13,632 nt of DNA from a virus. Positions 257 to 5,076 of the stretch are shown one piece after another (the first letter of the stretch is position 1; each line of letters opens with the position of its first letter). Both the position numbers and the translations under genes were made by a program. The stretch lies in UHGV virus genome UHGV-1808101; one strand, 5' to 3'. Below the pieces are notes generated by a model. That model ran no database searches and was not told where the DNA came from. It was given only the letters and a program-made list of their open reading frames with translations.

Positions 257-389
257 TTTTGGGAACTCCTGGCTGATTAAGTATGTCGATAAGGCGTTTC
301 CATCCGTCACGTAATTTACGGGTGATTCGTTCAAGTAAAGATTCGGAAGGGCAGCCAGCAACAGGCCACCCTGCAATGGCATATTGCAT
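249..389 (-). CDS. cIII: CIII (FtsH/HflB inhibitor that stabilises CII), 46 aa
   Basis: Not in the ORF track (<60 aa). Minus-strand ATG at 389 preceded by AGGAG; translation [46 protein letters not shown] matches recalled lambda CIII over its N-terminal 46 residues. Confidence 0.8.
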   Translation of the reverse strand: MQYAIAGWPVAGCPSESLLERITRKLRDGWKRLIDILNQPGVPKNG

Positions 390-454
390 GGTGTGCTCCT
401 TATTTATTTACACATAACGAAAACGCCTCTAGTGAAGCGTTATTGGTATGCATA

Positions 455-613: not shown

Positions 614-1237
614 TTATGCGGCCTCGGAAGGAAGTCCAATCATCTTATTCAAATCTTCTACCCGTAAAGCAGGAAGTGCTGCACTTGCTTTATCTGCTTC
701 TTTTGGTAGCAACTCTTTGCTTTCAGGCCAAACTTCAATAAGTCGCTTAACTGTTGTGACTGAGTTCAAAGCAGCCCATACGTTTGATTCTATATCCTTT
801 TTCCTGGCTTCAAGTTTTTGTTGCAATGCGCAGATTTCATCAAACCTTTTTGTTATTTTGTGTTCTGCGTCAAACATGCATTTATCTTTGTCGGGGGTAG
901 GGAGCAATATATCTTCACCGTTGCCGTCTTTTCCGTATGAATGCCAGCCAACCCTTCTTCCAGATACAGTCAGATAAATCGAACATGAACTGACATCGCA
1001 TGAGTAAAATGAACATCCCAGCTTTTGAAGTTCCTCACTTGCAGCCATTAACTTTGATGCCAGCTGGTCCACTTCTTCGGTTTTCTTTTTCCCGCCAAAC
1101 GCAATAACTCTGGCGTCAAGTGCAAGCTGGTTCTTTAACTTTGTTACTTCTTCAAGTTCAGTGAACACCCCGGACTTAATTAAAGCGTTACGAGCGATTT
1201 CCTCTTTCATTCTCGTAGTTAAGCGGATTGATGACAT
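614..1237 (-). CDS. Hypothetical early-left (pL operon) protein, 207 aa, function unknown
   Basis: Long minus-strand ORF; chosen start MSSIRLTT at 1237 has a GAGAGGAA Shine-Dalgarno-like sequence upstream; occupies the ea10/ral/sieB accessory slot between N and cIII. No motif recognised. Confidence 0.6.
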   Translation of the reverse strand: MSSIRLTTRMKEEIARNALIKSGVFTELEEVTKLKNQLALDARVIAFGGKKKTEEVDQLASKLMAASEELQKLGCSFYSCDVSSCSIYLTVSGRRVGWHSYGKDGNGEDILLPTPDKDKCMFDAEHKITKRFDEICALQQKLEARKKDIESNVWAALNSVTTVKRLIEVWPESKELLPKEADKASAALPALRVEDLNKMIGLPSEAA

Positions 1238-1298
1238 ATTAATTCCTCTCAAATAAGTGGTTTGCTGCCTAATCTCATTTTCTGGCGACCAACACAAG

Positions 1299-1682
1299 TC
1301 ACCTCGCCGTCAGTTGTTTTGATTTCCGGTAGCCTGCCGCGTAAATGGCTACGTTTGGAAGACATACACCAGTTTCTGGTTGCTTATGTCCAAACTCATT
1401 CGCGTACACAATGGCTGCTCGCTCCAGATTGCGTCTGTATTCTTTCTGTTGCCAGATCACGTCCTGTGCCATGAACTTAATTGGCTTAGCGTCTTCTATG
1501 CGCTCAGGCGTTTCGTGAGTACCTTTAGCCTGAATCTGCGCTCTGCTTAGAGTAGGGCGGTGTAATACTTCTGAACTTATTGCTTCTTCGCGGGCCAGTA
1601 CGCAGTTAGCTAATGCCTTTGCCTTTAAACGCTCACGACGACGAGAACGTGAATTGCCTTTGAACTGAGTTCTGCGTGTCAT
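1299..1682 (-). CDS. N: Antitermination protein N, P22 gp24-like type (127 aa)
   Basis: AGGAGG Shine-Dalgarno 6 nt upstream; N-terminal arginine-rich motif GNSRSRRRERLKAKA; C-terminus VAIYAAGYRKSKQLTAR resembles recalled P22 gene 24 protein (…ALYAAGHRKSKQITAR); first gene downstream of pL/nutL. Confidence 0.7.
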   Translation of the reverse strand: MTRRTQFKGNSRSRRRERLKAKALANCVLAREEAISSEVLHRPTLSRAQIQAKGTHETPERIEDAKPIKFMAQDVIWQQKEYRRNLERAAIVYANEFGHKQPETGVCLPNVAIYAAGYRKSKQLTAR

Positions 1683-1930: not shown

Positions 1931-1959
1931 ATAGTACGATGTGTACTTTATTGAGTCAA
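1931..1959 (-). promoter_or_regulatory. pL promoter with overlapping operator oL1 (-35 TTGACT, 17-bp spacer, -10 TACTAT on the minus strand)
   Basis: Minus strand reads TTGACT-caataaagtacacatcg-TACTAT; the spacer contains the palindrome AGTACACATCGTACT (plus 1933..1947), which recurs at pR. Confidence 0.55.
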
Positions 1960-2142: not shown

Positions 2143-2169
2143 CAAAGAAAACCCGGCGCTGAGGCCGGG
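2143..2169 (-). terminator. Rho-independent terminator ending the cI-linked minus-strand operon
   Basis: Minus strand: CCCGGCCTCAGCGCCGGG hairpin (6-bp GC stem) followed by TTTTCTTTG, immediately after the stop of the 206-aa ORF. Confidence 0.55.
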
Positions 2170-2177
2170 TTAATGCG

Positions 2178-2798
2178 TTAATGCTGGGGAGTGATTTTTT
2201 TGTTGTCTGTTGGCTGGGTATTTTGTGGCGGCGCTTGCAAAGTGGAAGGCTGTTGCAAAGGTGCGTGGTCTGACTTTAAAGCTGATACCAGCCCGGGAAT
2301 CGCAACTATTACAGCGATAATGACACTAAAAATGGCTAATCGTATAGAAATACCCGACTGAACACCACTAATTGCGGCATTAACCCCTGTTATTTGTCCT
2401 TGAATTCCTTCGAATCTCCCATTAATTGCTTTTATATCGCCAGCAGCGCTATCCATCTTTCCATCGATCTTGGACGATAGAGAGCTTATGGCTGCATTAA
2501 GTGATGCAAATTGGACATTAACGCTTTCACGAGATAGAGCCATGTCAGCCCTAATGGAGGAAGCAATAGACTCCATCTCTGCTTTATTAGCAGCTAAGCG
2601 AGCATCAAGTTCCTCTCTGCTGATCGTTCCCACTTCTTCCTCCGTTTGTGGCGGTTTTATGTAATTATTTTGCACCTTGGTGGGAGAATTATCAAATTCA
2701 GCCTCAAAATCAGAACCGCCAACAACCTTCAACCTCCGGCTTTCAGATATGTTGGTGTCTTGCTTTCCATGATTATTTAAATTACTGTCGTCACTCAT
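2178..2798 (-). CDS. Hypothetical membrane-anchored coiled-coil protein, 206 aa (third gene after cI)
   Basis: ORF with ATG overlapping the upstream stop (ATGA coupling at 2795..2798); hydrophilic N-terminus, Ala/Ser-rich heptad-like central region, one hydrophobic helix LAIFSVIIAVIVAIPGLVSAL, and a Pro/Gln-rich C-terminal tail. Confidence 0.65.
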   Translation of the reverse strand: MSDDSNLNNHGKQDTNISESRRLKVVGGSDFEAEFDNSPTKVQNNYIKPPQTEEEVGTISREELDARLAANKAEMESIASSIRADMALSRESVNVQFASLNAAISSLSSKIDGKMDSAAGDIKAINGRFEGIQGQITGVNAAISGVQSGISIRLAIFSVIIAVIVAIPGLVSALKSDHAPLQQPSTLQAPPQNTQPTDNKKITPQH

Positions 2799-3229
2799 AA
2801 TAGCTCTACGGTGAAAAATGATTCATTTTTATGAAGTTCATTTTTAGGGTCTTCATTATCTTGCAATATCCCTATAACACTATACAGCCCTTTAGCTGGG
2901 ACCCTAATTTCTTTCAATGTTACTATTACCTGTCCGCCAACCCCTGTTTCAAAATGGCTATCTTTCGTATCGATGAAAAGTGAAACTGATTCCGAAGAGC
3001 CGTCAGGGAATTGAATTTCCTCACCTTTTTTTATAATTAGGTGCGCGGGGATTACCATAATACCCAAATTATATCTTGAATTTGGTTTCAACCCGATCAT
3101 ACCAACCCTGAAATCAATTGATAGCCGCGCAGGAAATTCATTGCATGTAAAATTAAGCGTCGGTTGGTTGGGTTCTTCGCTGCTATCAAATGGGGTTATA
3201 AAAGATATTCTTTCTAAATTAAGTGCCAT
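2795..3229 (-). CDS. Hypothetical protein, 144 aa (second gene after cI)
   Basis: Start moved to MALNLERISF (ATG at 3229) because AGGAGA lies 5 nt upstream; the longer track ORF (start 3283) lacks a comparable ribosome-binding site. No motif recognised. Confidence 0.6.
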   Translation of the reverse strand: MALNLERISFITPFDSSEEPNQPTLNFTCNEFPARLSIDFRVGMIGLKPNSRYNLGIMVIPAHLIIKKGEEIQFPDGSSESVSLFIDTKDSHFETGVGGQVIVTLKEIRVPAKGLYSVIGILQDNEDPKNELHKNESFFTVELL

Positions 3230-3299
3230 AAATTCTCCTGCATCGCTGTATGCTCTACGAGCATCTCTGCGACCATCCATCATCCAAACGTCTCTTCAC

Positions 3300-3641
3300 T
3301 CATCCGAAGAAGCAGCAATCCGGGTCAGCACGCACAAGCTCAAGCGCATCAGTCAGCGAAAGTTCAGTACTGTACTGATGCCATTTCATATCCTTCCGCA
3401 TCCAATAGATTTTCCATCTATCCAGAGAACGTATGTACTTGATTCTTGCTGATGGCAGGATGTTTGTTTCACCTGGGTTGCCCTGCCACACGGGGCGCTG
3501 TTCGCCGATATCTATCGTTTGGTCATTGATGCTATAAACAATATCCAGTTCATTGCGGATATGTTCAGGCGGCCTTATGCTTTCAATGAATTGGTGAACT
3601 TCTTTTTTGACCGCTTGATATTCAAGGTCAGTGAACGCCAT
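3300..3641 (-). CDS. Hypothetical protein, 113 aa (first gene after cI, rexA-like position)
   Basis: ATG 10 nt after the cI stop with a GAGGAGGA Shine-Dalgarno overlapping the cI stop codon; no motif recognised. Confidence 0.65.
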   Translation of the reverse strand: MAFTDLEYQAVKKEVHQFIESIRPPEHIRNELDIVYSINDQTIDIGEQRPVWQGNPGETNILPSARIKYIRSLDRWKIYWMRKDMKWHQYSTELSLTDALELVRADPDCCFFG

Positions 3642-3650
3642 CTATCCTCC

Positions 3651-4310
3651 TCACCCAAACGTCTCTTCAGGCCACTGGCTGGCGATAACTTTCCCAACAA
3701 CGGAACAACTCTCATTGCATGGGATCATTGGGTACTGTGGGTTTAGTGGCTGTAGAAACACCTGACCACTATCCCTGATCAGTTTCTTGAAGGTAAACTC
3801 ATCACCACCAAGTCTGGCTATGCAGAAATCACCTGGCTCAACAGCCTGCTCAGGGTCAACAAGAATTAACATCCCGTCAGGAAAACTGGGTTTGGAACCT
3901 GTTGGTGCGGTCATTGAGTTACCTTCAACCTCAAGCCAAAATGCAGAATCACTGGCTTTTTTGGTTGTGCTTACCCATCTCTCCGCATCACCTTTGGTAA
4001 AGGTTCTAAGCTCAGACGAGAACATCCCGGCCTGAACATGAGAAAAAACAGGGTACTCATATTGTTTTTTAACGGGGGCTGATGAGCATTCGCCAACAGG
4101 TGAAAATGTACCGTCGTGGTTGAATGAGACGTTATTAATACCAAGGTACTTAAACACCACACCAATCTCGTCAAGAGATGGATGACGAGATCCGCGCAAC
4201 CAGTGACCAATTCCACCCTGCGTCATACCAAGCTCTTCAGCTAACTTCTCTTGAGTTATGCTGAGTTCTTTCATTCTGGATCTAGCCAGTTCATACCATT
4301 TCATTTTCAT
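3651..4310 (-). CDS. cI: CI prophage repressor (helix-turn-helix N-terminal domain plus LexA/S24-type autocleavage C-terminal domain)
   Basis: C-terminal ~135 residues ([15 protein letters not shown]…[12 protein letters not shown]) match recalled lambda CI, including the Ala-Gly cleavage region; N-terminal domain ([37 protein letters not shown]…) is a different helix-turn-helix. Start set at 4310 (GAGGGT Shine-Dalgarno; leaves ~110 bp for oR) rather than the track start at 4373. Confidence 0.9.
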
Positions 4311-4367
4311 ACCCTCATTATTACGCTCCGTACTAAAACCATCCATGCACAAGATGTATTTTTTCGA

Positions 4368-4396
4368 TTGCATTCCAAAAGTACATATCGTATTAT
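4368..4396 (+). promoter_or_regulatory. pR promoter with overlapping operator oR1 (-35 TTGCAT, 17-bp spacer, -10 TATTAT)
   Basis: Plus strand TTGCAT-tccaaaagtacatatcg-TATTAT; spacer and -10 carry AAGTACATATCGTATT, matching the pL operator consensus AAGTACA-N-ATCGTAYT; cro ATG 27 nt downstream. Confidence 0.55.
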
Positions 4397-4422
4397 TGTT
4401 TCATGGTTACTATGGAGGGCAT

Positions 4423-4638
4423 ATGAGCAACCTACGAAAATATCGAGAGTCACTGAAGATCTCTCAAACAACCCTTGCTAAGGCTGTTGGATGCACACAG
4501 GGGGCTATCGGACATTGGGAATCTGGTCGTCGCTTCCCAGACCTTAAAACATGCCGTGCTCTTGTTGCGTGCCTAAACAAGTTCGGCGCAAAAGTCAGTC
4601 TTGATGACGTGTTCCCGCCGGAACACCAAGCCGCTTAA
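4423..4638 (+). CDS. cro: Cro-like repressor, 71 aa
   Basis: GGAGGG Shine-Dalgarno then ATG at 4423; helix-turn-helix segment ISQTTLAKAVGCTQGAIGHWESG; divergent from cI across oR. The track ORF 4258..4638 is an upstream in-frame extension. Confidence 0.8.
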   Translation: MSNLRKYRESLKISQTTLAKAVGCTQGAIGHWESGRRFPDLKTCRALVACLNKFGAKVSLDDVFPPEHQAA

Positions 4639-4779: not shown

Positions 4780-5076
4780 ATGACACAAACAAGTTACAGC
4801 AAACTATCCCAGCGCGACGTTGATCGCGCAGAAACGGATTTACTCATCAACCTGTCAACGCTTACCCAGCGCGGTCTGGCAAAGATGATTGGCTGTCATG
4901 AATCGAAGATAAGCAGAACGGACTGGAGATTTATTGCTTCGGTCCTGTGTGCTTTCGGAATGGCATCAGACATCAGTCCGATTAGCAGGGCTTTTAAGTA
5001 TGCGCTTGATGGAATCACCAATAAAAAACGCCCGGCGGCAACCGAGCGTTCTGAACAAATCCAGATGGAATTCTGA
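4780..5076 (+). CDS. cII: CII transcriptional activator (lysogeny establishment), 98 aa
   Basis: C-terminal …[19 protein letters not shown] matches recalled lambda CII; helix-turn-helix in the centre; position after cro/nutR. Confidence 0.85.
5022..5048 (-). terminator. OOP-like antisense RNA terminator (tO) inside the cII 3' end
   Basis: Minus strand CGCTCGG-TTGCCG-CCGGGCG 7-bp stem (one G-U pair) followed by TTTTTTATT; same arrangement as lambda oop antisense to cII. Confidence 0.55.

Follow-up and report, generated by a model that had tools for sequence, protein, structure and literature searches.

The 13,632-nucleotide (nt) stretch of DNA analyzed here (UHGV virus genome UHGV-1808101, hereafter the window) corresponds to the early region of a lambdoid Escherichia coli prophage, as judged from its open reading frames (ORFs), its Pfam domains, and comparison with RefSeq. 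The chromosome of E. coli SCU-104, a commensal isolate from a healthy person, harbors a prophage that is identical to the window at 13594 of 13632 positions, without insertions or deletions. We focused on the immunity region, where the repressor gene cI (3651-4310, minus strand) diverges from cro (4423-4638, plus strand), with cII at 4780-5076 (plus strand). An earlier note on this DNA had described a hybrid repressor, with a lambda-type C-terminal half and a different helix-turn-helix (HTH) domain reading its own operators, and had proposed a distinct immunity specificity built by domain-level recombination. We found this interpretation to be right in outline and incomplete: the region very probably constitutes a lambda-style switch, and its immunity type is that of the phages VT2-Sakai and Nil2 and of a converting phage for Shiga toxin 1 (Stx1).

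We first describe the repressor. CI has 219 amino acids (aa) when read from the ATG at 4310 (an alternative ATG lies at 4304) and consists of two parts. Its first 83 residues (4062-4310, minus strand) form an HTH domain of the XRE/HTH_3 type (Pfam HTH_3, E = 2.3e-9, residues 32 to 79 of the 240-aa ORF) that aligns weakly with lambda CI, over the generic helix-turn-helix only. The remainder, residues 84 to 219, is encoded together with the stop codon at 3651-4061 (minus strand) and takes in the S24 C-terminal domain (Pfam Peptidase_S24, E = 1.1e-28), the cleavage site, and a portion of the hinge. From Tyr84 to Gly219, 135 of 136 residues are identical to residues 102 to 237 of lambda CI, which bears out the two-part description of the earlier note, and Ala94-Gly95, Ser132, and Lys175 align with A111-G112, S149, and K192 of lambda CI. 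With an HTH domain, an S24 domain carrying the Ser/Lys dyad, and an Ala-Gly scissile bond, CI is by its sequence a phage repressor of the LexA/lambda-CI type. RecA-stimulated autocleavage is expected, since the cleavage module is that of lambda except for one residue. A PDB search returned no close solved structure for the N-terminal domain (best E about 7e-4).

At the DNA level, the match to lambda (NC_001416) within cI is confined to 3651-4061, with 95.1% nt identity (blastn). It starts exactly at the codon for Tyr84 and ends at the stop codon. In this block of 136 codons, 20 differ from lambda, 19 of them by synonymous changes and 1 by a nonsynonymous change. Identity falls to random level on either side (27% over the 59 nt upstream and 38% over the 94 nt downstream). 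Such sharp boundaries support an exchange within the hinge.

The cI ORF remains open upstream to 4373, adding 21 codons (4311-4373, minus strand) that run across the operators OR3 and OR2 described below, and both RefSeq and GenBank record AP005153 place the start of the gene at 4346, inside OR2, which yields a 231-aa product. CI homologues in other genera have 217 to 219 aa, a length that favors a start at 4310 or 4304 over the one in RefSeq, and a GAGGG Shine-Dalgarno sequence is found before these two ATGs. The true start is therefore likely 4310 or 4304, and the annotated 231-aa CI is probably an annotation artefact.

We then analyzed the sequences of Cro and of the cII region. Cro (71 aa) is also an HTH_3 protein (Pfam). 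It is 35% identical to the N-terminal domain of CI, of which it is a paralogue, and the two have a helix TQGxIGHW in common (the recognition helix reads TQGGIGHW in CI and TQGAIGHW in Cro). Its identity to lambda Cro is 34%, in a gapped alignment, and it co-varies with the N-terminal domain of CI; the earlier note had rightly called cro correspondingly different. A structural template is available for this Cro type, as PDB entry 28tn_A ("lambda repressor-like protein," 82 aa) matches it over its full length (4423-4635; E = 2e-17). Phages 434 and P22 offer a parallel, in that their Cro and repressor head are likewise homologous, have recognition-helix residues in common, and both read one operator set; they differ in the head itself, the N-terminal domains of P22 C2 and of 434 in the PDB being matched with E values of only 0.16 to 0.8. 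The cII product (Pfam Phage_CII) is the activator of cI establishment transcription. No exact cII box (TTGCN6TTGC) was found near cII. A TTGC-N6-TTGT box with one mismatch, not significant alone, lies at 4789-4802 (minus strand), at the position of PRE in lambda, and from this position it may act as a PRE-like site.

The operators were found on both sides of the cI gene. The 16-mer AAGTACAYATCGTAYT occurs exactly twice in the window, at 1933-1948 (minus strand) and at 4379-4394 (plus strand), within the spacer and -10 regions of PL and PR, as the earlier note had reported. It is a pseudo-palindrome (AGTAC-N5-GTACT). Of a lambda-like set of six operators, each 17 bp long, it is the strongest; the number of operators per side has to be corrected from one to three. 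On the right, OR1 (AAGTACATATCGTATTA, 4379-4395) overlaps the spacer and the -10 of the putative PR (4368-4396, plus strand), which we read by eye with a -35 TTGCAT at 4368-4373, a 17-nt spacer, and a -10 TATTAT at 4391-4396. PR falls below the threshold of the consensus scanner; the homologous position in AP005153 is annotated as "putative major rightward promoter." OR2 (ATGCACAAGATGTATTT, 4345-4361) is a weak site, and OR3 (TATTACGCTCCGTACTA, 4319-4335) adjoins the cI start; their centers are 43 and 17 bp, respectively, from ATG 4310. On the left, OL1 (TAGTACGATGTGTACTT, 1932-1948) overlaps the -10 and spacer of PL, OL2 (CAATACAAAATGTTCTA, 1957-1973) overlaps its -35, and OL3 (TATAACGTTTTGTATTT, 1990-2006) completes the triplet. 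PL itself (1931-1959, minus strand) came from the promoter scan and has a -35 TTGACT, a 17-nt spacer, and a -10 TACTAT. AP005153 carries three putative operators each at OR and OL, at positions homologous to these, OR1, OR2, and OL3 among them, and describes its CI as "similar to phage lambda CI." A candidate -10 for PRM, TAATAA, lies at 4318-4323 (minus strand), 7 nt upstream of ATG 4310 and where AP005153 has the maintenance promoter; this position suggests that cI mRNA has no leader or almost none, as is the case in lambda. OL1 is 2447 bp from OR1. The region thus has, at the level of sequence, the layout of a lambdoid immC region, with divergent cI and cro, three operators over PR/PRM, and a second triplet at PL.

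Comparison of the 12 half-sites gave the consensus W-A-R-T-A-C-R, with A5 and C6 present in 12/12 and A2 in 11/12. A relaxed palindrome (ANNAC-N5-GTNNT) matched the window 11 times versus 2.8 expected, a count reached in 0/200 shuffles, and 5 of the 11 matches are OL or OR sites. A palindrome match at 2103-2117, which lies in lambda-homologous DNA near a terminator, was not counted as a fourth OL operator. When eight phages with this N-terminal domain were aligned, the half-sites were conserved and the six operator positions were kept, with substitutions and indels concentrated in the N5 centers and in the spacers between operators.

We then looked for the same immunity region elsewhere, using the segment 3300-4700 as the query and requiring a match over at least 80% of its length. 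We found 44 matching phage records, including the Stx phages VT2-Sakai (AP000363), Nil2 (AJ413274), 2851, 1717, and the PA series, the Stx1-converting phage and Stx2 phage II (AP005153/AP005154) of O157:H7 Morioka V526, and YYZ-2008. The same type is present in non-Stx phages of quite different morphotypes, namely, the P22-like 720R6 (vB_EcoP-720R6), Louie, the lambda-like 2B8, and phi458, and this cI with its OR is found in 776/5426 complete E. coli genomes (about 14%). Compared with the Sakai-type phages, the aa identity is 91.6 to 96.4% for the CI N-terminal domain, 97 to 99% for the C-terminal domain, and 94.4 to 95.8% for Cro (the whole CI of the Stx1-converting phage and of Nil2 is 96% identical to that of the window), all six operators are at the same positions, and the 12-residue recognition helix is invariant in the CI alignment. 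The window CI differs from the Sakai-type CI by six N-terminal substitutions outside the recognition helix and by one in the lambda-type block. The operators differ mostly in the N5 centers and outer bases, and OR1 reads ...ATCGTATTA in the window versus ...ATTGTATTT in the Sakai-type phages. The N gene differs as well, and so does the cassette that lies downstream of cI. In the DNA of the N-terminal domain and OR, the window is about 90% identical to the Sakai subtype and 96 to 97% identical to a phi458/720R6 subtype.

Judged by these sequences, the immunity region is of the VT2-Sakai/Nil2/Stx1-converting-phage type, which is already known and common. Since the alignment places the N-terminal domain in this known type (VT2-Sakai, Nil2, Stx1, Stx2-II, 2851, 1717), the novelty that the earlier note had claimed does not hold; that note had itself named an N-terminal domain of a known immunity type as the outcome that would refute it. 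The same 17-mers are given as VT2-SA operators, including a VT2-SA OR2 oligonucleotide, in Table S1 of PMC10742460, and that paper cites Fattah et al. (Genes Genet Syst 2000, 75:223) for a high homology of VT2-Sa CI to lambda CI in the C-terminal part and a low one in the N-terminal part. The type is catalogued rather than well characterized.

Relative to lambda, the window has the same hinge and C-terminal domain from Tyr84 on, with the cleavage site and the Ser/Lys dyad, the same divergent cI-cro arrangement, three plus three 17-bp operators, an OR2 at nearly the same distance from the cI start (42 bp in lambda, 43 bp in the window), and the same OL-OR distance of about 2.4 kb. It differs in the N-terminal domain, which is unrelated beyond the generic HTH, in the operators (AGTAC-N5-GTACT versus TATCACCGC... 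in lambda), in Cro, which is an all-helical HTH_3 paralogue of CI and does not have the lambda Cro fold, and in the cassette that replaces rexAB. A search with the 17-mer lambda operator consensus TATCACCGNCGGTGATA, allowing up to 3 mismatches, gave 0 matches in the window, in agreement with the view of the earlier note that the operators are unlike those of lambda. Of the three hallmarks of lambda immunity (N-terminal domain, operators, and Cro type), the window has 0/3.

Starting from what the sequence shows (its anatomy, its conservation, and how closely it agrees with known phages), we propose by homology with lambda how binding, cooperativity, activation, and cleavage would operate in this switch. 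The 83-residue XRE-family HTH domain of CI would read the 17-bp pseudo-palindromes through the half-site WARTACR (core AGTAC-N5-GTACT). CI dimers at OR1/OR2 and at OL1/OL2 would shut off PR (cro, cII, O, and P) and PL (N), and CI at OR2 would stimulate PRM. Negative autoregulation through OR3 and OL3 would limit CI synthesis, possibly via OL-OR looping across 2.45 kb; lambda-like looping is possible because the domain that makes the dimer, tetramer, and octamer contacts is that of lambda. Upon SOS induction, RecA would stimulate CI to cleave itself at Ala94-Gly95 with its Ser132/Lys175 dyad, and Cro would bind the same operators and lead to lytic growth. Establishment transcription would be driven by cII from the PRE-like site at the start of its own gene.

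Several observations weigh against such a switch. OR2 fails even the relaxed palindrome, and OR2 and OL3 are weak matches, which we retain as operators because of their conservation, their position, and the earlier annotation. PR and PRM are weak relative to the consensus and were read by eye. The OR1-OR2 spacing is 34 bp versus 24 bp in lambda, so pairwise cooperativity is not simply to be assumed. In the accessible literature, we found no experiment that assayed binding of the cognate repressor to these operators. Finally, Fattah et al., as cited in PMC10742460, reported VT2-Sa and lambda to be cross-immune, which the window sequence does not predict; the distinct specificity proposed in the earlier note is thus predicted by the sequence and at odds with this report. 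We therefore considered that the region might confer lambda immunity, or a functional cross-immunity in which its repressor and lambda CI read each other's operators well enough in vivo. In addition to the report itself, lambda CI, the only repressor used in PMC10742460, shifted all six VT2-SA operator oligonucleotides, and the identical C-terminal domains could allow mixed dimers or cooperation. However, Table 1 of the same paper gives apparent dissociation constants (KD) of lambda CI of 3.7 to 6.4 µM for the VT2-SA sites versus 0.21 to 0.35 µM for its own OL1/OR1; the former values are close to that for the weakest lambda site, and the accessible passages contain no non-operator control. The lambda operator consensus is missing from the window, and the N-terminal domains align over the generic HTH only. 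Further papers citing Fattah et al. yielded nothing on cross-immunity. Altogether, we regard this alternative as distinctly unlikely. A more radical objection would be that the repeated 16-mer reflects chance or promoter-derived similarity rather than an operator, given that the two copies lie across AT-rich promoter elements, a position that inflates their similarity. We give this almost no credence, as two copies were found versus 0.20 expected (a number reached in 1/200 shuffles), the sequence is palindromic, it is conserved at both loci in the eight phages while the adjoining spacers vary, and it belongs to a three-plus-three array with lambda-like geometry. A lambda-style switch of the VT2-Sakai type remains the reading that we prefer.

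We then examined where the two-part repressor may come from, in a survey of 120 CI homologues whose N-terminal classes were labeled against four reference N-terminal domains. When the N-terminal domains were clustered by single linkage with a cutoff of 60% identity, the window and phage-L types became chained together, and this clustering was dropped. C-terminal domains at least 79% identical to that of the window were joined to at least four N-terminal classes (the window, lambda, phage-L, and HTH_19 types), and the four classes were interspersed on the tree of C-terminal domains. For relatives with the window-type N-terminal domain (P0002 to P0007), identity was 79 to 86% in the N-terminal and 80 to 85% in the C-terminal domain; for relatives with the lambda-type N-terminal domain (P0053, P0072, P0075, and others), the N-terminal value was 65 to 74% and the C-terminal value 82 to 85%. 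Both types of head have relatives with C-terminal domains 80 to 86% identical to that of the window. The window-type head also occurs with distant C-terminal domains, 58 to 64% identical (P0025 and P0029). The c2/cI repressors of the Salmonella P22-like phages L, ST64T, SPN9CC, and g341c have the same HTH_3 plus S24 design, with 51 to 54% aa identity in the N-terminal domain, the value for phage L/SPN9CC-type repressors being 51 to 57%; they differ in their C-terminal domains, which are 79 to 86% and not 99% identical to that of the window, in recognition details, and presumably in their operators. The E. coli HTH_19-type repressors P0062 and P0094 adjoin the lambda/window C-terminal clade on the tree. 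In their C-terminal coding DNA, hybrid alleles are 91 to 95% identical among themselves and 93 to 95% identical each to lambda. They thus differ from one another by 5 to 9%, as much as they do from lambda. Taken together, the survey results indicate an exchange that is either old or recurrent.

Since the C-terminal family sits on at least four interspersed heads, shuffling is a general property of the family and calls for no special event. As far as these sequences tell, the hybrid look of CI reflects a C-terminal module that is shared among the repressors of enterobacterial phages and reassorts freely. The recombination suggested by the earlier note fits the sharp boundary in the hinge, and its attribution to lambda is too specific, as at least four head classes share this C-terminal family. 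Common descent with strong purifying selection could in principle also account for a lambda-like C-terminal half, if the N-terminal domain had diverged faster: in LexA-like repressors, conservation is generally higher in the C-terminal domain than in the DNA-binding head, and of the 20 codons that differ here, 19 do so synonymously. Yet identity drops from 95% to random level over a few bases at either edge of the block, and synonymous sites are conserved inside the block only. The interspersed heads of lambda, window, phage-L, and HTH_19 types, together with the occurrence of the window-type head on C-terminal domains as distant as those of P0025 and P0029, make common descent very improbable. 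The direction of the exchange is a separate matter. The window-type cI may be the older one and lambda cI the recombinant, or both may have taken their C-terminal domain from a third repressor of an E. coli phage; we put the chance that one of these holds at a little under even. Both window- and lambda-type heads have relatives with co-diverged C-terminal domains, hybrid C-terminal DNA varies as much among alleles as it does from lambda, and the HTH_19-type P0062 and P0094 lie next to the lambda/window clade. We found no decisive point in either direction, and lambda could equally have been the recipient; the matter concerns history rather than function and is compatible with the switch that we prefer.

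We finally looked at the genes surrounding the immunity region. A three-gene cassette (2178-3641, minus strand; ORFs, Pfam, PADLOC) occupies the rexAB position, in the same orientation as cI, and an intrinsic terminator follows it at 2150-2171 (minus strand; promoter/terminator scan). Its products are a DUF3024 protein that PADLOC matches to the defence candidate PDC-S43 (E = 7e-42), a second protein of 162 aa without family, and a third of 206 aa with a C-terminal stretch that looked hydrophobic by eye. The cassette genes are probably expressed in the lysogen together with cI, by cotranscription, and they may form a prophage-encoded defence or exclusion cassette. The cassette is bracketed by lambda-homologous DNA, at 2051-2172 (the terminator region) and at 3651-4061 (the cI C-terminal block), which suggests that the conserved C-terminal coding sequence serves as a homology arm for swapping neighboring modules.

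Further to the left, beyond PL/OL, the N antiterminator ORF (1299-1682, minus strand) is intact, encoding 127 aa (Pfam N_peptide, E = 2e-15); at the N position of the nearly identical SCU-104 prophage, RefSeq has only a 69-nt pseudogene fragment, and the likeness of the window N to that of the Stx1 phage is limited to the 3' end. The left end of the window contains cIII and kil remnants and an Nmad5-like gene. The latter (614-1297, minus strand) is located between cIII and N, encodes a putative nucleotide-modification protein of the Nmad5 family according to RefSeq, and had no PADLOC match. An Rfam Lambda_thermo element, the lambda cIII thermoregulator RNA element, is found at the cIII start (344-402, minus strand; 88.5 bits).

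In the rightward direction, cII is followed by O, P, ren, nin genes, two antirepressor genes, Q, and a TerB-family gene. The antirepressor genes (9067-10568, plus strand) encode a protein with a P22AR C-terminal domain (9067-9771) and a phage antirepressor (9840-10568). Directly upstream of them, Rfam identified the C4 antisense RNA (8931-9014, plus strand), its a1/b1 target element (8816-8868), and isrK (8829-8905). C4 RNA and antirepressors look like a second immunity layer akin to the immI system of P1/P7, which could inactivate CI. Downstream of Q, the TerB-family gene, and DUF3927, the small RNA family STnc100 is represented by two full-length copies (12700-12905 and 13183-13392, plus strand; 141 and 166 bits). 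A marginal Rfam tRNA match, also downstream of Q (11799-11868, plus strand; 32.6 bits, E = 0.0013), may represent a degraded tRNA, at a site that is occupied by tRNA genes in Stx phages; ARAGORN found no tRNA in the window, including at this match.

For the window itself, the earlier note provides a correct reading of a common, catalogued immunity type and little that is new. About 14% of complete E. coli genomes carry that type, as does the Sakai Stx2 phage, and its lambda-type C-terminal domain is a module that several repressor specificities have in common among phages of E. coli and Salmonella. As the same domain for dimerization and cooperativity is carried on at least four heads in phages that share enterobacterial hosts, mixed dimers and tetramers might form. 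It is a speculative and rather unlikely proposal that the repressors of coresident heteroimmune prophages indeed form such mixed species and so couple their switches, with the C-terminal block also acting as a homology arm for both flanking modules. If this were true, coupling might take the form of a dominant-negative weakening of immunity, of shared induction thresholds, or of the reported VT2-Sa/lambda cross-immunity, and the homology arm would swap the specificity module on one side and the cassette in the rex position on the other. The shared module bears on the origin of new immunity groups and on interference among the repressors of coresident prophages, including the Shiga-toxin phages, in which induction controls toxin output.

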